DNA from: a virus
Lineage: Duplodnaviria; Caudoviricetes
Length of the DNA stretch: 52,578 nucleotides
Reading direction: 5' to 3' (one strand)
IMG/VR virus record: IMGVR_UViG_3300025141_014116
Span: 1-52,578 of that record
Shown: positions 1 through 49,226 of the stretch, in pieces
Position numbering within the stretch: position 1 is the stretch's first letter
How the letters are laid out: each line of letters opens with the position of its first letter
Position numbers and translations under genes: made by a program
The notes under the pieces: generated by a model
The model's database searches: none
Seen by the model: the letters and a program-made list of their open reading frames with translations, nothing else
Told to the model about the DNA's origin: nothing

Positions 1-65
1 TCATTGTTGGTCCGGTAGCCGGTCCCCAACACATTAGTCAGTATCTTTAGCTTCTTCTCTTTCAC
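1..65 (-). CDS. Partial CDS running off the left edge; possibly the N-terminus of a phage DNA primase
   Basis: GTG at 65-63 opens MKEKKLKILTNVLGTGYRTNN(D/E) with no stop to the edge and overlaps the end of the RuvC-like gene. The primase call rests only on recalled resemblance to the 'L..VLG......N' lead-in before the zinc finger of large-phage primases; the CxxC is outside the window. Confidence 0.4.
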   Translation of the reverse strand, partial: MKEKKLKILTNVLGTGYRTNN

Positions 66-793: not shown

Positions 794-991
794 CTATAAT
801 TTTTCATTCATGGCCCATTTAGCTGAATGTGCAAAAACATATCCATGTTCGGGATGGTCGGCGAGTACGGCGTCAGCTCGGCGGAGTGCTGTTTGCAGTG
901 TATCCACTAGGGCGCGCAGGTCCCCTATTTGTTTTTCCATATCCCTATTTTTTTTACGCGCGATTGTGTCGAGTGTTGAATCGGTTGTCAT
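794..991 (-). CDS. Small hypothetical protein, predicted coiled coil
   Basis: 65 aa filling the gap exactly, with a TAATG overlap to the upstream gene; heptad-like IGDLRALVDTLQTALRRAD. Confidence 0.55.
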   Translation of the reverse strand: MTTDSTLDTIARKKNRDMEKQIGDLRALVDTLQTALRRADAVLADHPEHGYVFAHSAKWAMNEKL

Positions 992-2334
992 TAGTAATCT
1001 AATTTCAATTTAAAAGTAAGCTCTCTCTCTTCTAGCTTTTTCACCGGTTTTGCAACCTTAGCAACTCCAATTAAGTTTTTATCAATGTCATACAGGCCGA
1101 TCGTAGTAATATAAGTTATCTTTTGAAATGATCCTGTGGGATCTGCGTACGCCGAACTAACCGTGTTTTTGATGTCTGCATTAAAATTTTGTTTATAAGA
1201 AAGTGAGGAGGTCGTCATTGCTAACGGTGTGGTGTAGTCCCGATATGTTATATTATTTGAATGATTTAATTGATTCTTGGGAGCTGTTATAAAATACATC
1301 TGTGTTGGGATCTTGTTCGACCCGCTATAATTTAATAGACAACTAGAAGAAATAGCGTGAGGCGCAGACGCAGAGATAGTTTGTGCAAAATTAACCCATG
1401 CAGGATAATTGCGATTAGTTCCATAGCTTTCAGTATGAGATCCGCTCGAAAGATCCCAAGAGCCAGTAAGTATAATAAACCCCTCATTATATAAAATTAT
1501 TCCTGCGGTACTTCCCGAGCCGACCGAATTACGGGGCGCTGTTTGAATTAAGTCGCCGTTATAGTTGATATCTTGAAGGCGCCCTACAAGAGTGCCGGTC
1601 ACATAGAACCGAAGATCGGTGCTCCCTTTATTAATACTATCACCATAAAAAATTGAGGGGATCGATACTAGTCCAACGTCAATTGAGCCGGGATCTGAGC
1701 CAGAAGCTCCCAAATTTCTAGCAGAGGAGGAGAAAGCATAATTAGTATTTAAAATTTGATAATAATTTAGTGTGTTTTTAAGTGCATAAAGATATGTAAC
1801 GTTTCCCGTCACTGGGGTGCTTGGTCCCGGCGGAACGCCGTCATCTGATTTAACAAACCTAGCAAAGCTTGCAGAATAATAATATTTTTGAAGTGATGAG
1901 CTAAGCGGCTGATATGAATATAAGACATCTCCAATATTCTTGGCGTTGTACTCCGCGTTCGACACGGATCTAAAATTGATACGCGTGCCATTTTTCACCA
2001 AAAAGGTGGCGTAATGTGGATTGGGGCCCACGTAATACGATGTAGGATCTGTGCCTGCTGCAACTGCTAGAGCAAAAGGATCTAGAGCTTGACCCGTCGT
2101 AGCAGAAGAGCTTGCTAGGGCAAAATCAAGTGTGCCGCTGCGATCAACATCCTGTTCATACAGGCTGATGTGGCCAGGAGGGACCCCTAAGATTCTAGAA
2201 GAAAAGGCCCCACTAATAGGCGCTTGGTTGTTATAGTACGACTCACCAGCATAAAAGACAAACGACGCCCTAGGAAAGGTCCCTACAACATTGATTATTT
2301 TGTCAGTGTTTTTAAGCTTGTAAAGATGCGGCAT
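991..2334 (-). CDS. Virion structural protein with tail-collar-fibre-like C-terminus (paralogue A)
   Basis: C-terminal YITTIGLYDIDKNLIGVAKVAKPVKK...FKLKLDY resembles the 'ElGLyD..G.LiAva' half of the P2 gpH/DUF3751 domain; Ser/Thr/Gly-rich; lies in the tail module. Confidence 0.65.
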   Translation of the reverse strand: MPHLYKLKNTDKIINVVGTFPRASFVFYAGESYYNNQAPISGAFSSRILGVPPGHISLYEQDVDRSGTLDFALASSSATTGQALDPFALAVAAGTDPTSYYVGPNPHYATFLVKNGTRINFRSVSNAEYNAKNIGDVLYSYQPLSSSLQKYYYSASFARFVKSDDGVPPGPSTPVTGNVTYLYALKNTLNYYQILNTNYAFSSSARNLGASGSDPGSIDVGLVSIPSIFYGDSINKGSTDLRFYVTGTLVGRLQDINYNGDLIQTAPRNSVGSGSTAGIILYNEGFIILTGSWDLSSGSHTESYGTNRNYPAWVNFAQTISASAPHAISSSCLLNYSGSNKIPTQMYFITAPKNQLNHSNNITYRDYTTPLAMTTSSLSYKQNFNADIKNTVSSAYADPTGSFQKITYITTIGLYDIDKNLIGVAKVAKPVKKLEERELTFKLKLDY

Positions 2335-2343
2335 TGCATTGGT

Positions 2344-3447
2344 TTAATAGTCTAGTCTAACACGAAACACCACTTCATCAGTCTTATTTTTCTCCACCGG
2401 GGTGCTACAAGCGAAAGTTGCCATGCATACCTTATTGGCATTGTAGAGGCCGCCGCCGGTAATATAGGCCCGGGCCATCGAGGTAGCAGAGGTCTTAACA
2501 CGAATTTGGCTGGCACTCAAATAAGTTGGATTACTTGAATAATTAAATTCATTGAAGTGAGCCCTACAATAATATATTGTTGAATTAATCTGAGTGGTGT
2601 TATTAAAAGAAATATTATACAAACGATTACGCAAAGCCGAACAACATCCTGAAACAGATGCACTTACCAATAACTTGCTTACGGTCTTATAGTTATTGGT
2701 GCCGCCGCCGGCTCCATTGTTGCCAATATAATTATCAGCGCCGGGGGTTGCGGGTACGTTGGATCCGGGGTCGCCCGGTTTTGGGAAGATACTGGCTGTC
2801 AGCACACATAAGCCTGTCTGATAAAAGATAAGACCCACACCAGATCCTGCAATAGCTGCAGAACCGGAGTACAGAATAGCATATTCGCCAACTGGTGAGT
2901 TATCTCTATACTGGCTAAGGGCTCCAAAGTCAGAAATTGTTTTTACCTTAGTGGGCGCTGCAACAGTGTTTCCCGTGAGAACTTGGATTGTAAATGACTG
3001 TTTCTGAATTTCATCCTTCGTCAGCAGTCGGGCGAAGTTAATAAAAAACACGTCTTTCATCTTTGTCCCGGTGGCGTCGCCCTTATTATCAAACTGCTTA
3101 ATATTGCCGCTAATGTCCGGATAAAGGTGAGTCAGGGCCATCTGATTGTAAATATTTAGCTTGTACTCTTCCATGTTTTTGCCGATGGAGCCCGAAAGAG
3201 AGGATTTCGGTGATATCCCCACAGTCAAATCAAAAATATGATTGGCCGACGAACTTAAGTAGGGATAATCATAAACCGACTGAAGCATTTCTTTACCAGG
3301 AACGTAGTCTTTTATGTTGGTGGTAAATACGGAAGCTTCGCTGTATGTACCGGAGGCGATTGTTCCCGTAACGGGTACCGTCTCGTGGAGGAAGTCCTCC
3401 ACCATATTAATATCATTGGGTCCAAGTTGTTTATAAGTGCTGGCCAT
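2344..3447 (-). CDS. Virion structural protein, paralogue B of 991..2334
   Basis: Shares GLIFYQTGLCVLTAS / GIILYNEGFIILTGS, NEFNYSSNPTY / NQLNHSNNITY and YIT..GLY...P..K...F...LDY with the neighbouring gene; AGGAG RBS upstream. Confidence 0.65.
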   Translation of the reverse strand: MASTYKQLGPNDINMVEDFLHETVPVTGTIASGTYSEASVFTTNIKDYVPGKEMLQSVYDYPYLSSSANHIFDLTVGISPKSSLSGSIGKNMEEYKLNIYNQMALTHLYPDISGNIKQFDNKGDATGTKMKDVFFINFARLLTKDEIQKQSFTIQVLTGNTVAAPTKVKTISDFGALSQYRDNSPVGEYAILYSGSAAIAGSGVGLIFYQTGLCVLTASIFPKPGDPGSNVPATPGADNYIGNNGAGGGTNNYKTVSKLLVSASVSGCCSALRNRLYNISFNNTTQINSTIYYCRAHFNEFNYSSNPTYLSASQIRVKTSATSMARAYITGGGLYNANKVCMATFACSTPVEKNKTDEVVFRVRLDY

Positions 3448-3461
3448 TTTCTACTCCTATT

Positions 3462-4430
3462 CTATACAATCGCTTTTACATACCGGACTGGAACATCTAT
3501 CCTATACCCGGTTGTCTGCCCAGAAACACTAATCATACTATCCAGATAATAATAAGACGACATGCTGCCAATATTGTCTCCAGAAGATACTGTGTTTCCT
3601 AGCTTAGTAAATAGCTCGTTATTGCTTCGAAGGTCCATAGAAGCATTCAGTTTAAACTTAATTCTCGCACCAAATGCGCCGGCGACTGCCTTATAGGGAG
3701 GATCCGGCGACAAAGCTGACGACTGGAGAAACTGGGGCGATGACGACACGTACTGACCATCGGTTTGATCCGTAAAGACATAAGTGGCAATATGATTGTC
3801 ATCTGTGAAGGACCACTGTGCTGCGCGTCCTCCGGTGTGGCCTTGACCACTCGTCTCTGCAGAGAATGGTGAACCTAGGCGCGCATCTGCGCGCACTACA
3901 AATTGAGTTTCGCGAAGCTGGGGGTTCATTGTCAAAACTTTAGCATTATCAATTCCTTGATCAAGAACAATCGCTCGCCCATCCTGTTGGCCGGGGGAGT
4001 TACCATCAAGTACACCGGCGGGGAGGCCGTTTGAGGCAGGATTGTCGCTTCCTAAAATCTTTTTAACGGTTGTGGCATCCACGGCTACGACAAAAGCCTT
4101 GTTACCAGTGGAGAGCTTAAACGGAGAAAAGCCCCCGCCGCTATATAAATTAATAACGGGCAGATAAAGCAGGTTGTCGGGAAGACCCTTGAGAAGTTTA
4201 TATTTACACCCCCCCGTGCCAAATGCTTCAGGTATGGGGGTGCGAAAGATCCCTAAACCTTTGTAGGCAGTTATCTGATTTGTCTTAAATAATTCATAAT
4301 TGATAGGATCATCACAAAACGCGAAATAGGTAATCGTGAACTCGCCAGTGCCTGTAGCACAAGCCTTCCGGCCCGCGGGGGTTAACAGGGCATCTACTAT
4401 GATGTCTCCTGAGTTATCTAAAAATGCCAT
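3462..4430 (-). CDS. Virion structural protein with tail-collar-fibre-like N-terminus
   Basis: N-terminal DALLTPAGRKACATG...ITYFAFCDD resembles the 'T.AG...LA.......IT.MAVGDG' start of P2 gpH/DUF3751; AAGGA RBS upstream. Confidence 0.6.
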   Translation of the reverse strand: MAFLDNSGDIIVDALLTPAGRKACATGTGEFTITYFAFCDDPINYELFKTNQITAYKGLGIFRTPIPEAFGTGGCKYKLLKGLPDNLLYLPVINLYSGGGFSPFKLSTGNKAFVVAVDATTVKKILGSDNPASNGLPAGVLDGNSPGQQDGRAIVLDQGIDNAKVLTMNPQLRETQFVVRADARLGSPFSAETSGQGHTGGRAAQWSFTDDNHIATYVFTDQTDGQYVSSSPQFLQSSALSPDPPYKAVAGAFGARIKFKLNASMDLRSNNELFTKLGNTVSSGDNIGSMSSYYYLDSMISVSGQTTGYRIDVPVRYVKAIV

Positions 4431-4451
4431 AATATATCTTCCTTGCTTTAA

Positions 4452-4459
4452 TAAATAGT
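4452..4459 (-). promoter_or_regulatory. Candidate late-promoter motif ACTATTTA
   Basis: In the 38-bp gap upstream of 3462..4430; the similar ACTAATTA lies in the gap at 27917-27924. The motif is short and also occurs inside CDSs. Confidence 0.3.
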
Positions 4460-4468
4460 TTTATCAAA

Positions 4469-7400
4469 CTAATTCTCCTCTGGTAATTTTGGGTTTAGCA
4501 TGGGCTGCAATTTAAACCTCAAATTCAGGTCGACCTTTCTTCCAGTGTCTTTGCTGGTTATCCTAACCTTAAACTTTTCTGTAGATGAGTTCCAGAATCC
4601 ATTCGCCGGGTCGCCCACGTAACAATCCGGGAGTTCATCTAAGAGGCCGGCCGTTGTTGCTGCCGGGTTCGTATGAGTAACTAGTGTGTGGTCTAGCGCG
4701 GCGCCGATTTCCAAGTACTTTCGGAACGATTTTTCTGGTTTTCCGAGGGGAGGGGGTACCATCGGGAAGGGCTCCGATATAAAATACATCCGGCCGTTCT
4801 CATCAATCAACTCTACTTTCATAACAGGAGTCGGATTAGATGGAAAACCACCCTTGTCGAGTACTCGGAAACAATAATAGTAAGCCCTGTTTGGCTCAAT
4901 CTCATCTACGATCGCAATGTTGGTCGACCGGAAGCCAGTGGTTGTTCTCCCTTCCAAAGCATATCTCTTGTAATCACCAAAATCTACATAACTAGAAGGG
5001 ACCCTTGTTGTTCGGAATACTTCAAAAGTGAGTCTTGCATCGTCTGTCCCATATTCTAACATACCGTCGGTCCGCTCTTGTACGGTAGCCAACTGGTCGA
5101 ACTTCGACTGGTCGGTGGCCTCAATAAGAACTGGCGGGGCCTCGAAATGATTGCTGTTTTGATTCAAAAGAATCTTCACCTTATTGTTAACCCCATAGGT
5201 GGGGAAGAAGTTAAAATCAGGTGGGGCGGGGGGCAAGTCATGAACTAGTTTGGTAGGGCTTGTCCAGTATGGCACTTCTATTAATTTTAAAGACAGCTTG
5301 TTAACCATGTGTACTGTGGCTGTGCCGGCGTCGTCCAGGTCCCAAGGCACTTGTGGGTTATATCCATGTGGGCCGTCCAAGAACTTCAGGCTCGTGACTT
5401 GCGGTATGCCGGGAGTAACGGGGGCATACTGTAGCCCAAAAAATACATTAAACGCCATGGCGGCTCCATTCGACACGACCGCGGTCGACGCGTTATAGTT
5501 AGGAAAAATGCTTGTCAAATAATTCGGGTTAAGAATATTTAGCAAATACAACGCATGCGCTTTCTGGCTCTTTGTAAGTTTGGACATCATACTCCTTTCA
5601 CCAAGAAGGAAACGACCTTCGCCGCGGACGGCGACGTTAAAGCTAGGATCACCCGAAAGTAGAGAGGGAGGGGCGCCGGGCAAGATTGTCACGTCGTCGC
5701 CCGAACTTATAAAACGCGCGATCATAAAAGGATTGAGACACCCAGCATTAAGGCCGCTGCATATGCTCCTTATACTAACGTAACGAGACCAACTTTCTCC
5801 CTCGTTGGGTGGGAAAGGGCGCGTCAAATTCGTACTTTGAAACACGCGCTGTCGAAGGACTTCGTCAGAGCACTCTAAATCTAGGACAAAGGGGTAGCCC
5901 GCAGTATAATCGGGATATGTCATCGGGGACATCATCCCGGGTTCGCCCAAATCAACTGCAACATCGCTGCTTTGAACGAAACCCACTATCGATTGGAGGG
6001 TACCTTCGGCAAGATTTGGCGAAGCTTGAAAATATTCCAGAATGTTTCCGGGCGAAGGCTCTGCGTCGCCATGATACGCCTGATTCAGGCCGGCTACAAT
6101 GCCATAGTGTTTAAGGGCGGCCCGGGCTTCGGTCTTAGTTGGTATAGGGGAAGTGTTCACCAGACCGCCTCCGAGGAGGTAGTTCTCGGTCGAGTAATCA
6201 GTCAAATTCACATTCATGAGGCTGCTGTAGTCGATGCTGGCGTCGTACGCCGTCGAGGAGGGGTCTGGTCCGGCCCACAGTGAGCCCATTTCAAGTATCG
6301 CTTCTCCAATTCGAGAAGGATAAGGCTGGATGTCCAGGGCCGGGTAGACTTGAGGATTATAATAGTTATACTCATTTCCAAAAACTAGTTTATATGCACT
6401 CACCTCATAAAAATACGAGCGTCCATATTCTACCTGACTATCAAAATATTCAAATGTCTGGCTATTTGCCGGGATATAAATATGTTGTATTGGGGTTTTG
6501 GATGCCTCATGATCTCGGCCACCGCCGGGGACTTGCTCATATTTTGTGATCTTATACGCAATTGTATCACTATAGGCCGGCTGCCCTGTCAAGAGTTGCT
6601 CAATCGTCCGGGTTGCTCCATCTTGGAGACGAGGAGGAGTCGCAGGATGGCCATTCTCCCCGTACTGAAACGAAGACTGGTCCGATGAATTAAACTTGGC
6701 TACTTCTAACAGCGTAGATAAAAAGTCTAGGTAGGTTCCTTCAAAGAGGCCTAGAAAACCGTCGCCGAAAAGAACATTTCCATTGTAGGGAGGGTCCGTG
6801 GGAAGCTGAGTGAAGTCGCGACCGATCATTAGGCCATAACCTCCAGCAATACCGCCGAGGCCCGAATCTCCGGGGGTACTGGGCGTTTGACCTATGAACC
6901 CATTAGTTCCTAGATTTAGACCATAGTGTAATCCCCCGCCTGTCCCGGCATCCGTTGAATTTTGGGTCACCTTGCCTATACCCTGCAAGAGGATGTTTCT
7001 TACATCTATGCACTTTGTAGTGGAGTACTGGCGCTGCCAATAGTCATCCCCAGCTATTTCATAATTATCGTTACCATTAAATACGGGAGCCTCGCCTCCT
7101 AGAATCGGCTTGTTGATATGTTCTCCCGCATCTGTCGTCATGCCGTGTTGCGTGGTCCACGAAGTCATAGACATGGTATGATAAAGTTGAGCTTTATAGG
7201 GAGGTGATGAACCAGCGGCGAGGGCGCCGGCGGTCCCTCCGTGGAGCCCAACCACACCAGTGTGCCATTCGGTGTCGTTGATCTCTGCGGCGATATTTGC
7301 TTTCATTATTTCGAACAGAAAATAATCATAAAACGCTTCACGCATAGTTGTTTCGCGGCCGGTGCCGGGCGTCGCGGCGCTGGGGCCGGCGACGTCGGAG

Positions 7401-8857: not shown

Positions 8858-8859
8858 CT

Positions 8860-16200: not shown

Positions 16201-19200
16201 CTAGAGCCGCTCACCACGTTCGCGGAAAATCCTATCGCGGGACGATACAACGCCTCAAATGGAACACGCTGGAAGTTATAGAAATTATCCGACCGGTTGG
16301 ATGAGGCTGAAAGAAGACTAGAGCTTCCATAATTCACGATTCCTTCGGGGAAGGTGGTATTTCTACAATTAGCTGAAGCTGAGGCTCTAGGCTTGGAAAT
16401 ATCATATAGCTTTCCGGCTCTCTCGTGGGCAGTACAAATATGGCTTCCTACGGCGATACCAGATTTAACTGAATTGAGTAGGAGGGACGTCCATGGTTCC
16501 AGGAAGGCGCGCCAAGTTGCCCTATAGGACGTTTCTTTGCCGTCAGCGTCGGTCCCGTTAAGGGCGACGTCGTCGGTGATCGACTTAGAAAACAAGGTGC
16601 CAAGTTTAAGAGCATATTCTGCCGGGAAGAATCCTTCATACGGAAGTGGTTTTACTAAAGCGGTGCACATCAAGCCAAACTGAGATTTTTCTAAAACAGA
16701 GCCGTCAACCAGTTCCGCTGATTCTGCAGTATCAACGAACTTAAAGAATTTCATGAAATCTGAGTTTGCGTAGTCTCGGAAAAAGCCGTCTTGGGATGAG
16801 TTTGCATACTTGGAACCCGTAATCTCAAACCAATCATCGATATTATCGAGAGTAAAGAAGTCTTCTTTATTGGTCTCATAATATTCTTCTAAGTGTTCAG
16901 AGATGCGGAATTCTGGAACCAAGGAGTGGTCCTTTCCTATAAGCATAATATTCTTACTATAAACTTTATAGGTTTCGTGAGGAATGCGAGTATGATAGTC
17001 TGATGTGCCGGCATAGGTGCCTGACAATTGAAATTCAGTTCCGCCGCCGAGGGCCAAGTTCCCGTACGTGTCTGAGCCCACAGGCACTTTCCAGGCATAG
17101 GTCACGGCGCCAGAGATAGAATTTCTCCCGGCTTTGCCGTAGCGGCTATACGAATTTTGTAGTTCTCCATCGCCCATTGAGGCGCCAGGGTTGATTCCAG
17201 GCAAAATCGGAACAACTGTTTTAAAGTTAACATGTGCATCGAGTGGCCACGCGCTTTGGCTCAGAATAATTTGTCCTTGTGAATTGCGAGTAGTAAAGCC
17301 CTGTTGAATAGGGATGGATGTCCTCAATTTACGGCGATCGTTCCAATATCTATCAATACTAAAGTTCTGTCGTAAGAATGTGCGACCCAAATAAGAATTA
17401 TAAGCCGCAGGGTAGACGCGCTGGCGGTATACCAACGAGATTCCTGAAATAGCAGCCCCCAAATCACTATCGTTATTACTTTTGAATATCAAATTATTAA
17501 TACGATTTACGTATAAATCAGCAGCTGCAGGGTTAGAACTATTAGGTACGCGGCTGTTCAAGTCATAATCAGCGAAATTAATCAACTTATTCCCATACGT
17601 ATTGGTAAGAACCACATTCGAATTTGCGGCGCCGTACTGTACACTGGCGTCGGCGGCGTTTGTGGTCTGCTGAACCTCGGGTGTGAAAGCACTAACCTTC
17701 ATGCGATGAACAATTGGATGTTCTTCCGAATACATCGCGGGCTCGACATACTGGCGGAAGGAATTTCCTCGTGTAGAGTTTATTTCTCTATCGTATGCTG
17801 TTTGTGTAACGATAGTAATAAGATTATTTTTCCTATTATGCCTCATCACGGGGCTCTCGGCCACCCTCATTTGTTTCCAAGAGGGCCACTGATATGGACC
17901 GTTGCGCATAAGCATCAAATGATGAAAAATATCTCCTATCCTAACGCGGCGTTTAAGCTTCTCATCGCGGGCGAGAATCCGATAAGCTGTGAGATTTTTT
18001 GTGAGTGGGTACCCTAACGTATTGATCGAGGATGTTATCGGATCATAGAGGAGCAAGTTTAGATTATCAAAGTTGGTTTCGAGACGTGACATCCAACCGC
18101 TGGCCGGGGATTCGTCAATCTCTACTGCCGGCGTTGTAGAAGAGGTTATCACCGGCAACGTTGGTATAAAATATCCGCCGCTTAGGTGTGAGTAGCCAAA
18201 TATAGAGGCTCCCCGCTGTAGGGATGATGTTACCCACATATATCCCTGGGTAGACCGTGGGATCGGATGTTGGATATACCAGTTATCATACCAGGATGAA
18301 GTAATATAACTCGTAGCACCAGTTTCTTTGATTCGCTTTCGAGGATTCATGTTAACTTTGTGCCAGGAAGCAGACAAGCGCGTCTGGGTAGGACTCCCGT
18401 AAACAGCATCAAGACCATACTGGCCACAGTGGAGGGTCTGAAGTTGCTTAAGGCCTCGCTGGTGGTTAATTTGATCCACCACTCTTATGCTTCCAGTTAT
18501 AGATTTGTCTGGAAGGACGCTGGTTGAGCCGCTAGTGGTACCGGGATATCCGTAATCACGAACTCGTAAGTTTCGATATGGAAGTACACTATAGACCGAT
18601 TTCTCTTCATGGGGTGGTTCCAGATACCCGCGTGATACAGATTCGTAAGAGCCGGGTGACCTAAACAAGCAAACCATCACTGTCTCATTGGAGTTGGGAC
18701 CATCACGGTTTGGCAGTTGATAGTCTAAGTTGCCTCCCACATTAGGTGTTTCGGTAGTGGGAGTTAAAAGCGGGAATCGGCCACGAGTGGCTAATGTCTC
18801 GGGATAACTAGCAAAACTGAAATTTGTGCGTTCGAAAAACAAATCGTTAGTAGTGCGGCCCGGCGCTTGAATAACTTGCAAATTTTGATTATAATTGCCA
18901 ATACGGCCGTGAGCTATTGTACCCGAGAGTCTGGTGCCTAGTGACTCAGTTGTTATTAAAATATTACTAATATTAACCGGCCGCTTGGTTCCAACATTGC
19001 GCCACAAGTTACCAACCGGAGTATTTGGATTTTCAGTGAATCCGGTGCCAGCCGTATAAGACGTAAAGTTGGGAGGCAAAAGGCCGATATTGCGTCCCGA
19101 TATAAAACCCCCTCCTGAGGAGGAGACCTTCTGATATCCTAGGCGTATCAGCCAACCTTCTTGACGCGTCGTGGCCATTGGCTCAACGTGTCGATACTCG

Positions 19201-22200
19201 CGGCCGCCGACGAATCTTTCAGCAAAGGGGCCTTGGAGGGGTTTCCGGCCGTCATTACTGATTAAATCATCATGTAAATTAGTAAGAATAACATCCCTCT
19301 TGAGCTCGTAATTACGTGGGCCTGAGGAGTTAAAATCCGCAATCGATGAAGAATACATACTAAATGGAGCACCAACGTTACCATTGCCTCCCCATGGAGA
19401 TGTGAATGATGATCCGCTTTCATTTGGGGCCCCCAATAATGAAAAGCCTAGACGCGGCGAAGGAGTGGGGATAGTCGGACTATAGCGGGGCCTCTTTTTA
19501 AACCGCTGAATATTGCTCCCCGTTGCTGGGGCCATCATCACCTTTGCCGGAGCATTCGTCGGCCCAACCTTTCCCCCAAAAGGTCTTGTTTCTTCAAAAA
19601 CAATGCCTACTTGTTTGTTCGGAGAAAAGTTAGAGCCGGGGCTGAGAGGTGTACGCAATCGAGCGCTGATTCGATAGGGGCGATATGGAATTCGTACGCC
19701 ATATTCAATTTTCCTCTTGGCCTCCGGGACGTTCTTCTTATCTTCATCTTTACCCGGGTGGGTGTGCGGCGGCTTCCATGGTGTGTCCTGTGAGTGGTGA
19801 CCCGGCTTATCGGGCGAAGGGCTGTCGGATTCTGGGCTCGGGGCGCCACCACCGCCGGACGGCGCGCCGCCAGGGTGGAAGGGGGGATCCGGCAGGTTTA
19901 TGACCTCCGGCGGCGTTTCGACACTAGGAGGGGCGCCAGCGCTGGCCGGCGCGTTGGCATTGTTGTTGCCTGGGTTTGTCGTGGCGGGGCTTGTCAGGGT
20001 GGTCGTAAAAACGTCGGGGTATCTAACAATTCTGGGGATACGATGCTGGTATTTGTTCCTCTCTAATATATGACTTTCTATAGTGGTCCGGATTGATTCA
20101 CTAAAATCTGCGCCGGCGGGAACAAGCTGTTGCAAGATGCTTGTGAGAGCAGAGTCAAACCATTTATAAAACTCAATATAGTGATCAAGGTCCGGGATGT
20201 TGCCAACACGTAAAAAGAAGTTCTCTCGTAAAATGCGTAAGTCCTTATATTCGCGGCGGTACTTATTAACCGGATTACCTACTAAATTATTAAAATCTAC
20301 AATTTCAGAAAACATTTTGAGCATATTTTCCGAGATAGTCTGGTACATGCTCTTTTCGATGGCAAATTTAAAATTGATGGGACGTGAGTCTCGCTTAAAA
20401 ATAATATCATCCTGACGATTGAGTACCTTAATCATATCCATCGAGGTAAGCTGTTCGAAGTTTAAGAGTTCGGCTGCCAAGACATAATCAGGATCTATGA
20501 CTTGTGTAGAACTGGCTGGAAATCCATACCCTTGACCTGTATGTTGCGCTCCCAGTAAATTGCCTAATAGGCCATATTGAGAAGCCTGGGCTGCAACGGA
20601 GCCAGAGGAGAAGTCGGGAACTGTAAACTGACCCGAGGCGTTAGAGCCCGTAACGGTTTCAAAATCCCAGTTAAGAGCTAAGGTCTGATTTTGTTTAATT
20701 TCGGTGTTTTGCTGGGCGGCCGGTCCGTCAAACAGATATGCATTATGACTTGGGTTCTGGCGCCCATAGTTGTGTACATCTTGACCATGCAGCAGAAGGT
20801 CGGTTGCTGTAAGTTCATCAACCCAATAGCGACAAAAGCCCGGGCGTGAATCCGTACGAGTCAAAACTGCACCGGTGAAATCTTGGCGATGGGCGCCGAC
20901 ATAAACACGAGTGGAGCCAGTTATAAAGCCATATCCCACCGTGGTCGGGTTGAGAGACGCAGTAACGCTGAAGGAGTTAATCTGTGTTCCAGCATCTACT
21001 TGAGATCCCTTAAATTCTATAGTATAGTTAGGGGGTGACGAACCTGTAAAATTCCATCCCTCGCGGGTGCGAGATGGCTTAAGCGTAACAGCTAAAATCC
21101 AATTACTATTGCTGTATACATCGTCGAAATAAGATGAACTAAGTAAAGGAATTACTCCGCCGGCGGAAGAGGTAAGAACGAATCTAGCAGCGCGCGAGTT
21201 CCTCTCGTTGCGAACCGCATAAACTTGGAAATTAGCGTTATCCGGAGTATTCCATGTTAATGAATTCGGAGAGACTCCAAAACGTCCAACGGTGTGTCGG
21301 CCGAATAAAGAAGCGCTTAAATATCTAAACTCTTGGTTGCTATAGCCTTCGTCATATACCTCCGGCTTGTCAGGAAACAGAACATAGGTCTCAAGAGTAG
21401 ATGCGTAGCCTCCGGTAAGCTGATTGGATGCGCTTAAATAAGATACTGAGTTACTGTTTGAGCTCGCAGTTTGTTGGAACACAGTGCTATCAAAGCGCTG
21501 TTTATGATTAAAATCAACAAACGTTTTCTTAACTGAGTTGAGTTCCCTGTTGTTCCGGATGCGATACTCGATGTTATTGCCATAAACATTAATCTTGTAA
21601 ATTTCATCGTCGACACCGAAGCATCGGAGAACATTTCTAAAGGAGCGCAAAGTTCCCTTGCTCTTAAAAATGCTACTTAAATTATTGTAGATATTTTGAT
21701 AAATAGCATTTTTAATATCTGTGAGGCTCTTCTGATAAACTATGCTCTCACTTCGGTCGCCGAGTTGCTCAAGAATATCTGCATCTAAAAATAACTCTGG
21801 TACCAACAGACCTTTGGCCTCTAAAAGACGGTTTGCGATCGTATTAGGTTTGCGAGAGCCGCTTACATATTGGATTGCATGAACTTCATTCAATTGTTGA
21901 ATTTGTACATAGAGAGTATCCAGATAGCTACTCATAATTTGAGTTAACTTCTGTAGCTCGTTGCCGTTTTGACCGTCTGCCTCTTGTATCCACGATGGGA
22001 AGGTTGTAAGAAGCTGCGCTGGGTTATTTAAATCATGGGCCGAACCTGTTAGACCTAGGCGCGTTATCGTAGCCTCAACTGCCGGATGGGTACTATAAAT
22101 AATTGGATCTTTAAACTCAGCAGTGGCCGCCTCACTTTCGACAATAGCTGAGCCGGTGTTACGCGAGCCGTCAGCAGAGTAGCCAGTCCAGGAACCATTG

Positions 22201-24140
22201 GTTACTCGACCCGAATAATCTAGAATTGTAGTATCATAGGAAGTAGTGCCAGTAATCCCTTCATTGAACTTGTAATAGACCCCTAAGGTGGTATTTGCCG
22301 GATCTGTGTTGGTTCCTCCTCCTACTTGTGTAAACCAATAGCGCCCTATATCCTTGGAGCTTCGCTGTGTTTTCCAGTAACGGAACTCATCGAGAGAGGC
22401 CGATAGTTTACCGGAATAGGCAGACGCTATGGGAGCAGAAGAAGAAGGGGCGGCGGCAAGGGCACCAATGGTGGCCACAAGGCCCCCTTGGATTGGGCCG
22501 ATAGCGGACGCTGTTAGAGTAGTCAGGCCAGTACTCACATATTGTGTTTTATTCAAATTGCCATCAATATAAAACTTAGCTGTAATCGTGTTATTAAGGG
22601 GAGAATATGCCTGAATTTGATCATTTTCAATCTTGCCGCTGATGGCGAAGGCTGTCGGGGCGCCATTTACTAAGCTCGGTAATTGATTTGTAAAAGAGGG
22701 TACGTTTGTCCCGTCGAGTTGGTCGCGGGGGCCGTTGCCGAGTGGATACCAGGCGGTAAGATAATCTGCGGCACTATGACCCATAAGATCGTCGGGAACG
22801 CCGGAATTATATATTTCCTGGGCTTCTGCCAGGGAGAGTTCTTTTTTCCAGATACTTGCATTGTTAAGATTCCCGCCAAGGGAATATTGTAACAGATTGG
22901 CACTCTTACCGATCGTCGACGCCTGGTCGCCGCCCAGGAGGCCAGGGGCGCCGGCGGTCGAGGTGGAGTCGTCAGCGAGGACGCCATTAACATAAATATG
23001 TGATGCTCCGGCGATGCCGCCAGCATATGTAGCAACGACATGATACCATTCGCCGGTTGCAAGATTGACAGAACTCTTCCGCCAATTGGTGGCGGCATTT
23101 TTGAGGGTGATCTGGCCAGTGGCTGTGGTGATATAGAGCCTTCTGGTTCCGCCGCTATAGCCAAAGGACATCAAGTCCTCGGCGACTTCAGTAGAAGATC
23201 CATCACGATAGACCCATATTGATAAGGTGTATGGCTTCGCTGCAGTGCCGGCCCCACCTATAGAGGCATTCCAGTCATCCGTAACTCCAATTTGAATACC
23301 ATCATCTATTCCATCAAAATTAACAGATTTTCCTTCCGTTGTATTTTTGAGCGAGACAGCATAATGTTGCCACTGATCATTTGCCACCGAAGCTGTGGTG
23401 ACAGTGTTCTGCGCCAAAGACACCGATTGAAATCCCGTGGTGCCCGAAAGCACTGTGAGGCGCCATGGGCTAGCTGCAGCCGATGTTAACTCTAATCTAA
23501 AGCGACCGTACTGTGCTGAGCTCGTTAATTCATTATTCCACAGATCGAATATGACTTCTTTCTGAGTTTTAGTCGGGTCATAGGCTGCTTTACGCATCCA
23601 AAACTCTAACGTTGTACCGGTGGCCAAATTAAATTCTAGATTTGATTTACGATTTTGGGATGGTTCCCAAACATTGGCGGTTTGTGTGTGAGGCCCTCCT
23701 CCTAGGCCCGGGCCACCCTTAATAAAAATATATTCGGTGCTGGCAGGTAATCCGTAGCCCTGTGCAGCTGACGAAACCGCGCCCCAGCCTCCATAAGAAA
23801 AATTAATATACCCCGTGGTACGTGGATATTCATTATCAAAAACATGCTGATCTAAATACGAGCCACTGTTCCTCCATGCCAACCGTTCGTATAAAGAGCC
23901 GTCATATGGATAAGAATTATAAATGTACTTACAAGCATTAAGATAATATTGCTCTGCCGAGCCATATTGAGCAAACTCTTCTGGATGTGAAAAATTGAGA
24001 TTGGGCACAAACCGTTTCTCATTGACAATATCGGCCGCGTGAAATCTCTCGGACTCGACATTATTGCCAATTTGATCGGCTGTTTTGTTAGCAACTGTCT
24101 TAACAACAGAAACCTTTTCGAATAAACCTTTAAGTGTCAT
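13266..24140 (-). CDS. Giant (3624 aa) baseplate/tail-associated protein with multiple LamG/concanavalin-A-like domains
   Basis: LamG motifs (TLEFWM...WQHYAVS, WYHVVATY...IYVNG, LDEFRYW...LGVYYKFNEG). The segment IFKSKGTLRSFRNVLRCFG resembles the 'KGT' motif of baseplate wedge/P2 gpI-like proteins. Lies two genes downstream of the gp6-like gene. Confidence 0.7.
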   Translation of the reverse strand: MTLKGLFEKVSVVKTVANKTADQIGNNVESERFHAADIVNEKRFVPNLNFSHPEEFAQYGSAEQYYLNACKYIYNSYPYDGSLYERLAWRNSGSYLDQHVFDNEYPRTTGYINFSYGGWGAVSSAAQGYGLPASTEYIFIKGGPGLGGGPHTQTANVWEPSQNRKSNLEFNLATGTTLEFWMRKAAYDPTKTQKEVIFDLWNNELTSSAQYGRFRLELTSAAASPWRLTVLSGTTGFQSVSLAQNTVTTASVANDQWQHYAVSLKNTTEGKSVNFDGIDDGIQIGVTDDWNASIGGAGTAAKPYTLSIWVYRDGSSTEVAEDLMSFGYSGGTRRLYITTATGQITLKNAATNWRKSSVNLATGEWYHVVATYAGGIAGASHIYVNGVLADDSTSTAGAPGLLGGDQASTIGKSANLLQYSLGGNLNNASIWKKELSLAEAQEIYNSGVPDDLMGHSAADYLTAWYPLGNGPRDQLDGTNVPSFTNQLPSLVNGAPTAFAISGKIENDQIQAYSPLNNTITAKFYIDGNLNKTQYVSTGLTTLTASAIGPIQGGLVATIGALAAAPSSSAPIASAYSGKLSASLDEFRYWKTQRSSKDIGRYWFTQVGGGTNTDPANTTLGVYYKFNEGITGTTSYDTTILDYSGRVTNGSWTGYSADGSRNTGSAIVESEAATAEFKDPIIYSTHPAVEATITRLGLTGSAHDLNNPAQLLTTFPSWIQEADGQNGNELQKLTQIMSSYLDTLYVQIQQLNEVHAIQYVSGSRKPNTIANRLLEAKGLLVPELFLDADILEQLGDRSESIVYQKSLTDIKNAIYQNIYNNLSSIFKSKGTLRSFRNVLRCFGVDDEIYKINVYGNNIEYRIRNNRELNSVKKTFVDFNHKQRFDSTVFQQTASSNSNSVSYLSASNQLTGGYASTLETYVLFPDKPEVYDEGYSNQEFRYLSASLFGRHTVGRFGVSPNSLTWNTPDNANFQVYAVRNERNSRAARFVLTSSAGGVIPLLSSSYFDDVYSNSNWILAVTLKPSRTREGWNFTGSSPPNYTIEFKGSQVDAGTQINSFSVTASLNPTTVGYGFITGSTRVYVGAHRQDFTGAVLTRTDSRPGFCRYWVDELTATDLLLHGQDVHNYGRQNPSHNAYLFDGPAAQQNTEIKQNQTLALNWDFETVTGSNASGQFTVPDFSSGSVAAQASQYGLLGNLLGAQHTGQGYGFPASSTQVIDPDYVLAAELLNFEQLTSMDMIKVLNRQDDIIFKRDSRPINFKFAIEKSMYQTISENMLKMFSEIVDFNNLVGNPVNKYRREYKDLRILRENFFLRVGNIPDLDHYIEFYKWFDSALTSILQQLVPAGADFSESIRTTIESHILERNKYQHRIPRIVRYPDVFTTTLTSPATTNPGNNNANAPASAGAPPSVETPPEVINLPDPPFHPGGAPSGGGGAPSPESDSPSPDKPGHHSQDTPWKPPHTHPGKDEDKKNVPEAKRKIEYGVRIPYRPYRISARLRTPLSPGSNFSPNKQVGIVFEETRPFGGKVGPTNAPAKVMMAPATGSNIQRFKKRPRYSPTIPTPSPRLGFSLLGAPNESGSSFTSPWGGNGNVGAPFSMYSSSIADFNSSGPRNYELKRDVILTNLHDDLISNDGRKPLQGPFAERFVGGREYRHVEPMATTRQEGWLIRLGYQKVSSSGGGFISGRNIGLLPPNFTSYTAGTGFTENPNTPVGNLWRNVGTKRPVNISNILITTESLGTRLSGTIAHGRIGNYNQNLQVIQAPGRTTNDLFFERTNFSFASYPETLATRGRFPLLTPTTETPNVGGNLDYQLPNRDGPNSNETVMVCLFRSPGSYESVSRGYLEPPHEEKSVYSVLPYRNLRVRDYGYPGTTSGSTSVLPDKSITGSIRVVDQINHQRGLKQLQTLHCGQYGLDAVYGSPTQTRLSASWHKVNMNPRKRIKETGATSYITSSWYDNWYIQHPIPRSTQGYMWVTSSLQRGASIFGYSHLSGGYFIPTLPVITSSTTPAVEIDESPASGWMSRLETNFDNLNLLLYDPITSSINTLGYPLTKNLTAYRILARDEKLKRRVRIGDIFHHLMLMRNGPYQWPSWKQMRVAESPVMRHNRKNNLITIVTQTAYDREINSTRGNSFRQYVEPAMYSEEHPIVHRMKVSAFTPEVQQTTNAADASVQYGAANSNVVLTNTYGNKLINFADYDLNSRVPNSSNPAAADLYVNRINNLIFKSNNDSDLGAAISGISLVYRQRVYPAAYNSYLGRTFLRQNFSIDRYWNDRRKLRTSIPIQQGFTTRNSQGQIILSQSAWPLDAHVNFKTVVPILPGINPGASMGDGELQNSYSRYGKAGRNSISGAVTYAWKVPVGSDTYGNLALGGGTEFQLSGTYAGTSDYHTRIPHETYKVYSKNIMLIGKDHSLVPEFRISEHLEEYYETNKEDFFTLDNIDDWFEITGSKYANSSQDGFFRDYANSDFMKFFKFVDTAESAELVDGSVLEKSQFGLMCTALVKPLPYEGFFPAEYALKLGTLFSKSITDDVALNGTDADGKETSYRATWRAFLEPWTSLLLNSVKSGIAVGSHICTAHERAGKLYDISKPRASASANCRNTTFPEGIVNYGSSSLLSASSNRSDNFYNFQRVPFEALYRPAIGFSANVVSGSSSTKGSFYDNGLASASLSQSAGTTSQLNKVRWSGQASPLYNLAIDNFLASSMYWFIDESQRPVFRSKPEGQFKEDVIAGQHYAMTFNLRRTLGKDLRADRTNFEMYNRATAFGAPFVLDSGSAQTTSAVSSSGYIDLTSSIAIAGKAASGYILLTASRGPGVKANGYVRIWSYADNVAGQRMYFTGSSGTVYTFILSDGPTAVINEENTEWDVNVGTSNTTQRENLFTAITNSAFVKTGGTCNKGGTEYVQLTQSTAGPDYNYGIEYTFAGASKSGFANGATGSWTGSLNCDAYTISDGGTDGSTTAFDFYLQQQAGLCAEGAEDKMVALITSSAMQTGTNLAAAINAQAAFNVTATATNHEPSTVLNTSRVVVTNGTTGSDGNVAITAVTNSLGYPGLNRFSKVHGMAGGAMARYSLTSGDSFTLRDGGTDGSATTTTFTMKGSPSLGTDFQLLAENAATTATNFINKLHDSATMNISGTVNGSAANARISLTNQGGGSAGNKNIWSSITSASYYASGGMAGGINGTSTIVHSASQAPNLPSYFYGKSSVTILTSASFGAAPTLGDLLSNAKYIYSRDYESDNYHTGAVGYWFAQQLSESYHLNTIRQAKIKGTTDLEVVWEIAPKWECPVLDFSDIASSVTLPPQSATPMAADADRRLTSVGMWHQYGQIPTGHNGVFASIDTPTSVTLAGQTYRAPRSLADLVGFEEGVEKRLGTVREGLRVKEAVIAVPFILASDGRRKFFKLPRSARRAPEIDQHLKTYIFPPLFEKEKVAMYVFEFHVDLTKQDLTDIWQNVLPQKFRDPTASPCTAVFQHDARIQLDPIGAGELINKTTRKLREDLRWLVFRVKQRAQSNFESFREQYTTELIDDPCEPQLITETDTRSRSRNKYTYNWPYDWLSLVELVKIDESITYTGRGGDCDDAPPSAPPSPTAASAAPQNIPTAPAVPTSNFTATAAALPGLGSSPLIDPDWFGDE
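14620..15815 (-). repeat. Three nested ~100-130 aa protein repeats inside the giant ORF
   Basis: Three consecutive (S/A)(S/N)GY(I/V)x(L/I) strands, then three bodies ending GFANG, GMAGG and GMAGG; DGGTDGS occurs twice (~15291-15311 and ~14901-14921). Confidence 0.65.
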
Positions 24141-24150
24141 CTTATCCTAA

Positions 24151-25662
24151 TTATTCAGTAACCCTAAATTTAAACTCTTCAGGCTGTTCTATCCAACCTC
24201 CTATAGAGTCATTATAATAGGATAATTTAATTTTATACATATATCCGGCCTCCAAAAGCGACATGTCCAAGTCAAAGTAGTTGCCATCGCCATCATAGGA
24301 TAAGAAGGTGTGATAGGTGGATCCCGTTCCATAAGGAACAGCGGCAAATGTGTCCGTAACCCGTTTAATTGTATAGGACGCACTCGTAATAATGTCAGTG
24401 GGGTTTTTAGCTGTAGAGACCGTGTACACTGTTGGGCTCCAATTCTTGTCTCGAACAAAGAAGCGGAATCGAGAGGTATCCTTTCGAGAATAACTCTTCT
24501 TAAGATATACGGCGCTTGTTGCCTTATTAAAAGTAGGTGCCACGCCATAGCGAGGCATCAACTCTGGATATAAAGAGCCGGTAAAATATTGAGTAGTGCC
24601 AGAATACCATACATCAAACATGGCTTGAAGTGGAGTAGTGGACGCAGTGATACAGAGAGATGCTGAGTAGACGCCGCGGCTAACATATCCGCCCGTTACA
24701 TGAGTTTTTCCGTTATGCAAAAGCAATTTGGATCCGGTGGGGGCCGTGGAGCCAGAGTAAAGAGAAACGAAAATTGAACCTGTGCCCACTGCAGGAATAT
24801 TAACCAATCGCCCTTTTACGTAATTGTAATAATAAAGACGATTACGATTGTCGATAGCTGGCGCATTAGAGCTTGAATAATAAAAGTTTTCACGATTATC
24901 CATAGTACGCGAATCCCATCGTGCCTCTATTGTTGGTCTTTTAAAGAAGTATTGAGAAGATCGAGCTGAAAATCGTTTTGTATAATATGTGTCGATTGAG
25001 CCGACAGTGTTCTGAATAGCGCCACTGGTGTCGTTCCCCGTAGAGCTTGAATAGTACGCCTCAAGAGTATCAGGGAGCTTAATGATCAGTCCATTATTTG
25101 CCAGTGTGCCGGACATCCAACGCTCTACCGTGGGGGATATGTCTATTTCTAGATCCTCCGGGCCCTTAGCGAAGCTAGCTGAATATACCGGTAATGAATT
25201 ATAGTGTCCTCCAATGTCGGGAGAGGCAGCGGGGCCCCAGATATTACCCGCGGATCTCTTCATCCAATTAGCGGTACCTATATCACTATACTCTTCCATG
25301 TCGAGGCCAGTGCCCTCCGACCACGACTGTGAGACGGCATGAATATTGAGCGAAAAGTCTTGAGGCAGTGTAAAAGCAGTTTCTACATTAAACAGACGTA
25401 GAAAAAACGATACGTTTCCTGATGCGGGCAACGAGCCGGCCGTCCGGTCAGAAGACAAAGTTGCAATAGGAAACTGTACCAAGGTCCTTGCTAGTTCTTG
25501 TGACTTGCCTTTAGCTGACGAGGATGTCTGGCCAGATATAGAATAGACTTCGAGCGAGTCAGCATACCCCATATTGGAGCCCGTGCCGCGGGTCGTCAGT
25601 GTATAATCGTAACCATTGGTGATAATGGTGTCCTGGCTCGCGATATAGCGCCTGATTCCCAT
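24151..25662 (-). CDS. Virion protein with N-terminal DNRLRE/CBM96-like beta-sandwich domain
   Basis: ASQDTII...NMG....LEV...RTLVQF...LRLF...IHAVSQSWSEG...W...IDISPTVERW....NNGLIIK...PTIEARW follows the DNRLRE-domain pattern. Confidence 0.6.
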   Translation of the reverse strand: MGIRRYIASQDTIITNGYDYTLTTRGTGSNMGYADSLEVYSISGQTSSSAKGKSQELARTLVQFPIATLSSDRTAGSLPASGNVSFFLRLFNVETAFTLPQDFSLNIHAVSQSWSEGTGLDMEEYSDIGTANWMKRSAGNIWGPAASPDIGGHYNSLPVYSASFAKGPEDLEIDISPTVERWMSGTLANNGLIIKLPDTLEAYYSSSTGNDTSGAIQNTVGSIDTYYTKRFSARSSQYFFKRPTIEARWDSRTMDNRENFYYSSSNAPAIDNRNRLYYYNYVKGRLVNIPAVGTGSIFVSLYSGSTAPTGSKLLLHNGKTHVTGGYVSRGVYSASLCITASTTPLQAMFDVWYSGTTQYFTGSLYPELMPRYGVAPTFNKATSAVYLKKSYSRKDTSRFRFFVRDKNWSPTVYTVSTAKNPTDIITSASYTIKRVTDTFAAVPYGTGSTYHTFLSYDGDGNYFDLDMSLLEAGYMYKIKLSYYNDSIGGWIEQPEEFKFRVTE

Positions 25663-34792: not shown

Positions 34793-34796
34793 TTTC

Positions 34797-38833: not shown

Positions 38834-38839
38834 TTTCCT

Positions 38840-39025: not shown

Positions 39026-39093
39026 ATTCTGTTTCTCCTTTCTCTATTTCTATTATTTTTCAAACTTTTATTCGAATCTGTCGAGATGTTCAA

Positions 39094-39285: not shown

Positions 39286-39303
39286 CTTTTTCTCCTTATT
39301 TTG

Positions 39304-41048: not shown

Positions 41049-41070
41049 AAGAATATCCTATTTTAACATA

Positions 41071-44251: not shown

Positions 44252-44265
44252 AGTTCTTCCTTTAC

Positions 44266-49215: not shown

Positions 49216-49226
49216 CTTTTTCTCTT

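Follow-up and report, generated by a model that had tools for sequence, protein, structure and literature searches.

The virion glycosylation of mycobacteriophages of the Che8 type was reportedly described by Freeman et al. in 2023. Tandem pairs of family 4 glycosyltransferases (GTs; GT4 for the family) are known as GtfA/GtfB, acting on serine-rich-repeat proteins, and SdgA/SdgB, acting on SD-repeat proteins; both glycosylate Ser in S-x-S contexts in the cytoplasm. In the chloroviruses PBCV-1 and NY-2A, virus-encoded cytoplasmic GTs are thought to glycosylate the viruses' own capsid protein. The glycans of mycobacteriophages are reported on capsid and tail-tube subunits, at their C-termini (PMC12619734); the bacterial autotransporter heptosyltransferases TibC and AAH, whose substrates are TibA and AIDA-I, are described as performing a cytoplasmic, lipid-carrier-independent hyper-O-glycosylation of Ser, not of Thr (PMC4358343); and the GT islands of marine cyano- and pelagimyophages have been read as modifiers of host O-chains or of DNA (PMC7029224 and PMC12801897). 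The subject of the present analysis is the window, i.e. the full 52,578-nt IMG/VR record IMGVR_UViG_3300025141_014116 (Caudoviricetes), in which 33 open reading frames (ORFs) were taken as genes, all on the minus strand, and which reads as the baseplate/fibre end of a T4-like myovirus (Table 1). Four of its proteins, designated here by their length (447, 367, 3624 and 503 aa), are densely occupied by the tripeptide [ST][GAS]S; the reading that we tentatively prefer is that its extended form, hydrophobic-[S/T]-[G/A/S]-S-hydrophobic, may be the acceptor sequon for a cytoplasmic Ser O-glycosylation on outward-facing, beta-rich parts of the virion.

When [ST][GAS]S was counted against 1000 composition-preserving shuffles of each protein, the four proteins together were found to hold 83 copies where 25.4 were expected: 13 versus 2.8 in the 447-aa protein (z 6.4), 6 versus 1.7 in the 367-aa protein (z 3.4, p 0.009), 50 versus 16.9 in the 3624-aa protein (z 8.2) and 14 versus 3.8 in the 503-aa protein (z 5.7). 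The initial annotation, made by eye, had placed about 13 tripeptides in the 503-aa protein, about 12 in the 447-aa protein and dozens in the 3624-aa protein, and had proposed the comparison with shuffled sequences; the counts bear it out, with the 367-aa protein as a carrier missing from its list. None of the other 29 proteins of the window is enriched, and the proteins that it had called sparse are so: the 2281-aa protein (2 versus 4.4 expected), the 1462-aa protein (0 versus 3.5), the gp6-like 605-aa protein (0 versus 1.5) and the enzymes, with 0 or 1 copy in each of the 16 proteins of the sugar island. The gp25-like 131-aa protein (0 versus 0.1) and the structural-module proteins of 322 aa (1 versus 1.1), 1104 aa (3 versus 3.9) and 363 aa (3 versus 1.0) complete the picture. 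The 1462-aa protein is motif-free though set between motif-rich genes, which may reflect avoidance or another fold class.

Within the 3624-aa protein the motifs lie in three blocks (approximately residues 543-1179, 1540-2036 and 2587-3202), and their spacing in the four proteins is irregular, ranging from 4 to 405 residues, the densest stretch having 6 sites in 68 residues. In an unbiased scan of all tripeptides of the four proteins, TGS (19 versus 3.6) and SAS (17 versus 4.1) stand, together with SGS and SSS, in the top seven; in the same scan of eight other structural proteins none of these four ranks.

A hydrophobic residue often precedes the tripeptide, as had been noticed at the outset (the six pentapeptides then quoted are all found); indeed, hydrophobic-[ST][GAS]S occurs 50 times in the four proteins against 7.6 expected (z 16), and 30 times against 3.0 when followed by a further hydrophobic residue or Ala. 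Ser is required at position 3: hydrophobic-[ST][GAS]-nonSer is flat (67 versus 67.4), Thr at this position reaches 12 versus 6.4, Asp/Asn 7 versus 8.7 and Gly/Ala 18 versus 12.0. At position 1, Ser and Thr behave alike (27 versus 4.3 and 23 versus 3.7, respectively), with Asp/Asn at 5 versus 4.6 and the pattern [GA][GAS]S flat at 25 versus 21.6, while Gly, Ala and Ser are equivalent in the middle (16 versus 2.4, 16 versus 2.4 and 18 versus 2.9). Such specificity resembles recognition by an enzyme; since G, A and S are equal in the middle and interchange in orthologs (see below), it speaks against a Gly-specific turn. The analogy with the Ser-Gly sites of glycosaminoglycans, drawn in the initial annotation, is a misfit for the same pattern, the Ser having to be third and the middle residue being free among G, A and S. 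Two described sequons are not enriched in the motif-rich proteins, namely D-[ST]-[AILVMT] of Bacteroidota O-glycosylation (12 versus 15.9) and N-x-[ST] of N-glycosylation (55 versus 58.1).

The possibility that the enrichment is an artefact of composition, of low-complexity Ser/Gly linkers, of a DNA word or of recent duplication may be regarded as practically nil. The four proteins are somewhat Ser/Thr-rich (Ser 9.7-12.3%), and S[GAS][ST] is raised too (65 versus 25.6), largely by overlap at SGS, SAS and SSS; nevertheless, composition-preserving shuffles give z of 11-16, and the two patterns quoted above as flat remain so. The codons at the three motif positions are diverse, all six Ser codons being used at position 3, and no 9-mer occurs more than twice; selection therefore acts at the protein level, and a DNA word as the cause is ruled out. 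Neither repeats nor paralogy explain the enrichment: BLAST of all motif proteins against each other yields as its sole pair the 447- and 367-aa proteins (22% identity), the profile of the 503-aa family reaches a probability of at most 1.3% against 19 targets in hhalign (single-sequence targets limiting the sensitivity), and for the 3624-aa protein neither internal nor cross homology was detected. A shuffled domain shared by the carriers was thus rejected as the cause, homology among them being limited by BLAST and hhalign to the 447/367 pair. Finally, orthologs at 40-65% identity are enriched as well, and the artefact reading is refuted by these controls taken together.

These orthologs come from 14 related contigs in IMG/VR, whose 503-aa proteins are enriched in 14 of 14 loci (9-17 motifs versus 1.7-4.7 expected); the gp6-like orthologs at the related loci are not (0-3 versus 1.2-2.0). 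The orthologous giants of the 3624-aa protein in L001-L013 are enriched with z of 4-10.7. Across 130 orthologs, the 503-aa family has 14.1 +/- 1.6 motifs, with 10 sites kept in at least 88% of the sequences, among them S263-S264-S265, kept in nearly all; at single sites the middle residue swaps among G, A and S and position 1 between S and T, while position 3 is Ser in at least 92%. The 447-aa family is more divergent (119 orthologs, 12.6 +/- 2.6 motifs versus 2.7 expected), 6 sites being present in at least 80% of the sequences, 11 in 20-80% and 58 columns in less than 20%. Pieces homologous to the 367-aa protein occur in several fibre-region proteins of the Microcystis phage Mel-JY01, themselves enriched; the counterparts (924 and 787 aa), in related contig G001, of non-enriched structural-module proteins are again not enriched.

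No DNA-level match to the window was found among the reference phage collection, nor did blastn and tblastn of the 503-aa gene return a match there; the gp6-like protein of the window is 27-30% identical to those of Mel-JY01, of the Flavobacterium phage immuto and of the uncultured 484-kb jumbo phage LR756508. G001, one of the 14 related contigs, is 184 kb long, is rated 100% complete and carries Portal_T4, Gp23, Peptidase_S77, T4_baseplate and sheath. Genome-wide observed/expected ratios for the four-residue motif hydrophobic-[ST][GAS]S are 3.57 for the window, 2.74 for G001, 2.43 for Mel-JY01, 2.84 for immuto and 2.72 for the Rhodothermus phage RM378, as compared to 1.82 for HTVC008M, 1.19 for Syn9, 1.07 for T4 and 0.94 for LR756508 (471 ORFs, about 467 of 484 kb examined). 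No enrichment is seen in gp7, gp10, gp34, gp37 and the sheath of T4 or in the giants of Syn9; the LR756508 proteins homologous to those of 605, 503, 447 and 367 aa lack the motif as well. Myovirus fibres in general therefore do not have the motif, nor do these particular homologs require it. The clade that carries it is very common in ocean metagenomes; for the 503-aa protein, at least 3806 homologs were found in the database.

The enriched proteins of G001 and Mel-JY01 are the protein following gp6, the giants, distal fibre-region proteins, fibre-like proteins of the head module and the tail sheath (13 versus 3.7 in G001, 11 versus 3.0 in Mel-JY01); no enrichment is seen in large non-virion ORFs, in the 669-aa portal-like ORF or in the 529-aa terminase-like one. 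Of the 13 sites of the G001 sheath, 12 are confined to residues 127-601, a part that excludes the conserved C-terminal core; residues 164-240 of the gp23-like capsid protein of G001 hold 4 of its 5 sites. Together with the absence of the motif from gp6- and gp25-like proteins, portal, terminase and enzymes, this placement fits exposed surfaces.

The initial annotation had suggested that the motif may receive the glycan made by the neighbouring island (39347-52578). A role of the island's own GTs in this is not supported: the four GT-like proteins of the window have no ortholog in G001-G004, Mel-JY01 or immuto, so that no conserved initiating GT is to be found among the cassette genes, and, as the motif sites are positionally conserved there, the enzyme that would read a conserved sequon cannot be a GT of the window. 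The sole conserved candidates are a tandem pair of GT4 genes, here GT4-A and GT4-B, that bounds the island on its far side in relatives. The gene order of G001 and G009 is PhoH, PD-(D/E)XK nuclease, GT4-A, GT4-B, a cassette of 10-13 kb, a 109-aa, a sigma-like and a 102-aa gene, lysis and baseplate; in G005 it is the same from GT4-A on, where the contig begins. Five of the 14 related contigs contain the pair, and the other 9 end, by their ranges, before its expected place; the window holds 13.2 kb of cassette and then stops, and the pair is therefore expected just past base 52578. It is also present in G002, G004, Mel-JY01 and immuto; RM378 has tandem GT4 genes, the second a weak match, LR756508 has GT4-A without GT4-B, and no GT4 was found in T4, Syn9 or HTVC008M. 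The motif is thus lineage-specific and tracks the pair, the four enriched genomes all carrying tandem GT4. The co-occurrence across relatives that had been anticipated holds insofar as relatives keeping the motif keep GTs and T4 and Syn9 lack both, with HTVC008M and LR756508 as discordant cases.

The EX7E signature is kept in 5 of 5 aligned orthologs of GT4-A and in 4 of 5 of GT4-B, the fifth having E-x7-D. GT4-A, a strongly conserved core gene, has at least 7863 database homologs, of which the top 120 are 71-88% identical, and across phages of cyanobacteria, Bacteroidota and Rhodothermus its N-terminal and C-terminal halves are 34/29%, 36/30% and 32/31% identical, respectively. In GT-B enzymes the N-terminal half is the acceptor side; its equal conservation in GT4-A points to a putative phage-borne acceptor rather than a host glycolipid. 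Classical glycosylation of hydroxymethylated DNA bases is unlikely, given that no ThyA-type hydroxymethylase was found in G001 or Mel-JY01 by a search that recovers the T4 control. The best solved relative of GT4-A is B736L of chlorovirus NY-2A (3oy2, E 3.7e-9); GT4-B has no solved sequence relative. A distant GT4-A homolog lies directly after the capsid gene in the Pontimonas phage phiPsal1, an actinophage. In Mel-JY01 (L042, positions 4747-8430) a 1227-aa ORF beside a motif-rich fibre-like protein matches the GT4-B profile (54 bits), which suggests a GT-like domain fused into a large protein; at 83441-84932 of the same phage GT4-A is split over two adjacent ORFs (profile matches of 164 and 380 bits), and the record annotates two glycosyltransferases.

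The cassette lies approximately 1.7 kb upstream of the structural/lysis block, on the same strand, and a like layout, with GTs beside structural genes, is seen in G001, G005 and G009; the block of 109-aa, sigma-like and 102-aa genes that marks its near border is conserved in G001, G003, G005 and G009. Its nucleotide-sugar enzymes are an RmlA-like nucleotidyltransferase, an RmlB dTDP-glucose 4,6-dehydratase, a GDP-mannose 4,6-dehydratase (both dehydratases scoring above the NCBIfam cut-offs), an epimerase/reductase and a DegT-like fragment; its modifiers are a sugar C-methyltransferase, two FkbM methyltransferases, another methyltransferase and a sulfotransferase. To these are added two unknowns and four GT-like proteins (288, 283, 229 and 294 aa), the families represented being GT9-like, GT2, weakly GT8-like and Glyco_trans_1_2, of which the 288-aa GT9-like protein matches PF01075 only partially (residues 141-233, 27.2 bits versus a cut-off of 22); a GT8 search (PF01501) in five genomes including HTVC008M returned none (0/5). 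The soluble nature of this toolkit has been confirmed, none of the 16 proteins having a transmembrane (TM)-like segment and none being a flippase, a polymerase or a polyprenyl-phosphate transferase, i.e. a lipid-carrier enzyme. Orthologs in relatives were found for its nucleotide-sugar enzymes and its C-methyltransferase only. As for the "methylated and sulfated coat" of the initial annotation, it is not supported: it rests on Pfam names of one variable cassette, and G001 has no sulfotransferase ortholog.

Several features of the cassette may be recorded in their own right. The cassettes, of 10-13 kb (39347-52578 in the window, 93271-109061 in G001, 1-14760 in L154, i.e. G005, and 4376-17918 in L155, i.e. 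G009), have conserved flanks and almost no genes common between genomes, a layout that recalls bacterial O-antigen loci. A 20-nt word starting with TATAAT is present at 44266-44285 and 51589-51608 (minus strand), each copy just 5' of a cassette gene start (2 versus 0.02 expected); the first copy has TTGTAA 17 nt upstream, giving it the look of a sigma-70-type promoter, and the word was not found 5' of structural genes. The DegT/aminotransferase-like ORF at 50953-51570 (205 aa) matches its family of about 360 positions in two stretches and may be truncated, split or degenerate.

The presence of modifying enzymes in the cassette also bears on another explanation, namely that the exposed Ser/Thr pairs serve some other surface role, whether as sites of phosphorylation, acylation, direct sulfation or direct methylation, or as unmodified hydroxyl arrays binding host polysaccharide or particles. 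This explanation accounts equally for the specificity and for the surface-biased placement, the cassette encodes a sulfotransferase and several methyltransferases, and the N-terminal part of the 503-aa protein resembles a carbohydrate-binding module (DNRLRE/CBM96); we nonetheless consider it improbable, as neither a kinase nor an acyltransferase was seen in the window, the motif is conserved in G001 despite the missing sulfotransferase ortholog and a single weak match (18 bits) for one of the FkbM methyltransferases, and nothing ties the Ser arrays to binding.

Under the sequon reading, the carriers in the window would be peripheral baseplate and fibre proteins, to which complete relatives would add the sheath, insertion regions of the capsid protein and head fibres. 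The tandem GT4 pair, with its predicted GT-B fold, would put the first sugar or sugars on Ser; the soluble, strain-variable cassette would make unusual nucleotide sugars from dTDP-glucose and GDP-mannose by 4,6-dehydration, amination and C- or O-methylation; the non-conserved GTs, methyltransferases and sulfotransferase would then extend and decorate the chain, and the outcome would be a strain-specific glycan coat. In favour of this reading stand the enzyme-like specificity, the occurrence in proteins that share no detected homology beyond the 447/367 pair, the bias to outer modules, the restriction to one lineage and the co-occurrence with the conserved GT4 pair, with the Ser-only glycosylation by TibC/AAH and the virion glycans of mycobacteriophages as precedents. 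It had been proposed from the start that the tripeptide may be an attachment sequon on exposed tail and baseplate proteins; the enrichment and its confinement to a subset of virion proteins have stood, while the attachment of sugar to protein, the enzyme responsible and the Ser used are what we infer. In a wider and more speculative form, an abundant marine T4-like clade together with phages of Microcystis, Flavobacterium and Rhodothermus might coat every outward virion surface with O-linked glycan through an undescribed sequon, the GT4 pair starting the chain and the hypervariable cassette diversifying it.

A number of observations weigh against the sequon reading, the evidence for which is correlative throughout. 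With regard to the enzymes, the GT4 pair lies outside the window, and both GT4 proteins having EX7E, nothing marks either as protein-specific. With regard to the distribution, LR756508 has GT4-A and no motif enrichment, HTVC008M is moderately enriched with no GT4 and with a single weak GT2-like match, the siphoviruses phiPsal1 and TJE1 have distant GT4 homologs without the motif, and all four concordant genomes may belong to a single deep clade, which would leave few independent contrasts. Moreover, islands of this kind in marine myophages have been read as host O-chain modifiers (PMC7029224). With regard to the motif itself, the excess is due mostly to sites conserved in position, as is expected for structural residues too. 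Shuffling gave 103 versus 39.2 for motif gain in variable columns; position permutations that preserve the phylogeny take up 13-26 distinct variable columns in the 447-aa family, as compared to 28 for the true motif, and 3-9 columns in the 503-aa family, as compared to 3, so that the latter family shows no excess. This gain has mostly dissolved under the latter control and is not counted as support; the signal is chiefly one of site retention, not of demonstrable repeated gain. In the AlphaFold2 models of the 503-aa protein (pLDDT 65, beta-rich) and of the 447-aa protein (pLDDT 60, mixed helices and strands), the sites fall within beta strands (S-A-S type) or at strand ends and starts. In the 1053-aa fibre of immuto (97658-100819; 60 motifs versus 20.1), many of the motifs belong to a regular [ST]-A-S-aromatic-A-x repeat of 6-7 residues that looks structural.

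Much of this is what would be expected if the motif were an unmodified, lineage-specific structural micro-motif, i.e. an amphipathic element of beta strands or strand ends in which the hydrophobic flanks, together with the small residue in the middle, turn to the core or to the interior of a beta-helix and the hydroxyls to the solvent, inherited within the beta-sandwich and beta-helical modules of outer virion parts. This explanation must be taken as nearly as likely as the sequon reading. The pattern hydrophobic-x-small-x-hydrophobic has the periodicity of a beta strand (the 30 versus 3.0 given above), the sites are positionally conserved as structural residues are, the models and the permutation control agree with it, as does the moderate enrichment of HTVC008M without GT4, and regular repeats of fibre-like proteins, such as TGS-x3-SGS and the 6-7-residue TAS-aromatic type, resemble the hexapeptide rule of left-handed beta-helices. 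On the other hand, Thr, by established propensity the better beta-former, is barely enriched at position 3, and the capping residues Asp and Asn are not enriched; the middle position does not distinguish among G, A and S; the carriers beyond the 447/367 pair have no homology that could be found; the sites of the window proteins are unevenly spaced, as many as 6 of them falling within 68 residues; and the homologous machines of T4, Syn9 and LR756508 do without the motif. The six-residue periodicity of the left-handed beta-helix was not found in the four window proteins, nor was any Pfam hexapeptide match, a periodic run being visible, by eye, only in the 1053-aa fibre of immuto. Searches with Foldseek returned for the 503-aa model only generic tandem chains of the Ig/FN3/MAM-like kind (TM-scores 0.11-0.19), and for the 447-aa model no match at E <=0.001.

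Returning to the sequon reading, the proposed system shares features with each of the described ones and is identical to none. With the Che8 type it would have in common phage-encoded soluble GTs beside structural genes and, as the proposed product, a glycan coat on virion proteins; the sites there are C-terminal, whereas the candidate sites here are internal, dozens per protein, and on baseplate, fibre and sheath, and the hosts here are Gram-negative, cyanobacterial or unknown marine organisms. To GtfA/GtfB and SdgA/SdgB it is likened by the tandem GT4 pair; however, the NCBIfam SdgA model matches GT4-A only very weakly (E 8e-4, 18 bits, cut-off 800), which shows no membership at the sequence level, the substrates there are long low-complexity repeats, whereas the motifs here are isolated within folded beta domains, and GtfA/GtfB is composed of a catalytic and a non-catalytic protein, whereas both phage GT4 proteins keep EX7E. 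The likeness to chloroviruses consists in B736L of NY-2A, whose function is putative; these are viruses of eukaryotic algae with N-linked capsid glycans at atypical sequons. With TibC/AAH the points in common are the restriction to Ser, the context of small residues and the beta-rich surface proteins (PMC4358343), to which a GT9-family match in the window is added; the Ser reported there is followed by GG or AA in beta-helix repeats, as opposed to the third-position Ser of [ST][GAS]S, and TibC is a dodecamer with an iron-finger. No ortholog of the GT9-like gene of the window was found in the motif-bearing relatives. The "auxiliary" islands of marine myophages are alike in being hypervariable clusters of GT and nucleotide-sugar genes beside tail-fibre and baseplate genes, and differ in that the accessible parts of the two papers contain neither a virion acceptor motif nor a bounding GT4 pair (PMC7029224, PMC12801897). 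Keyword searches of the literature found no description of a sequon of this form or of a GT4-bounded cassette, which is not proof of their being unpublished.

The assignment of the window to a T4-like virion is based on its hallmark genes, gp25 (PF04965) and gp6-like PHROGs. Downstream of the gp6-like gene the genes follow each other in the order 503, 3624, 363, 1104, 1462, 322, 367 and 447 aa; upstream of the gp25-like gene lie those of the 2281-aa, amidase-domain and late-sigma-like proteins. The match of the 503-aa protein to NF033679 (28.9 bits) is under the cut-off of that model, 34. The T4 late-promoter consensus word TATAAATA has 6 matches in the window versus 4.1 expected, none of them 5' of genes. 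In the 2281-aa protein the two TM-like hydrophobic segments are situated around residues 1056 and 2238; this protein could be a tape measure or be associated with the hub. The gaps at 574-990, 38586-39346 and 43992-44336 appear to contain short coding frames of less than 100 aa rather than non-coding DNA.

Table 1. Features of the window, with coordinates, strand and family matches or remarks.
Feature	Coordinates	Strand	Family match or remark
RuvC / Holliday-junction-resolvase-like ORF, 179 aa, end of structural block	34-573	-	phrog_827/159
447-aa distal baseplate or fibre protein, motif-rich, paralog of 367-aa protein	991-2334	-	no Pfam/PHROG family
367-aa distal baseplate or fibre protein, moderately motif-rich	2344-3447	-	no Pfam/PHROG family
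Four structural-module proteins (322, 1462, 1104, 363 aa), not enriched	3462-13265	-	no Pfam/PHROG family
1462-aa protein	4469-8857	-	without any [ST][GAS]S
3624-aa giant baseplate or fibre protein, motif-rich	13266-24140	-	no Pfam/PHROG family
503-aa protein, directly downstream of gp6-like gene, motif-rich	24151-25662	-	DNRLRE/CBM96-like N-terminal part and Ig/FN3-like beta-sandwich modules
gp6/J-like 605-aa baseplate wedge protein, motif-free	25662-27479	-	phrog_10646/219/6 (three baseplate-wedge PHROGs)
gp25/W-like 131-aa inner baseplate wedge protein, motif-free	27503-27898	-	PF04965
2281-aa protein, two TM-like segments, not enriched	27947-34792	-	no family
Block of 2281-aa, 324-aa, amidase-domain 518-aa and late-sigma-like 234-aa proteins and small ORFs, none enriched	27947-38585	-	
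Sugar cassette, 16 proteins, cut by window end	39347-52578	-	family matches

Among tailed phages, virion glycosylation has to date been demonstrated for mycobacteriophages, and no general acceptor rule was found in the searchable literature. A defined sequon of four to five residues, if true, would make glycosylated phage proteins predictable from sequence, especially in combination with an initiating pair and a swappable cassette; the "lipopolysaccharide-like auxiliary genes" near the tail-fibre genes of marine myophages would then be genes for virion glycans and not modifiers of the host surface. This offers a testable alternative to the usual assumption that the GT islands of marine myophages remodel the host envelope, and, as three or four cultured phage-host pairs carry both the motif and GT4, one that is directly testable. 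Should the motif be purely structural, it would still mark the exposed modules of this lineage strongly and in a way that is easy to score.

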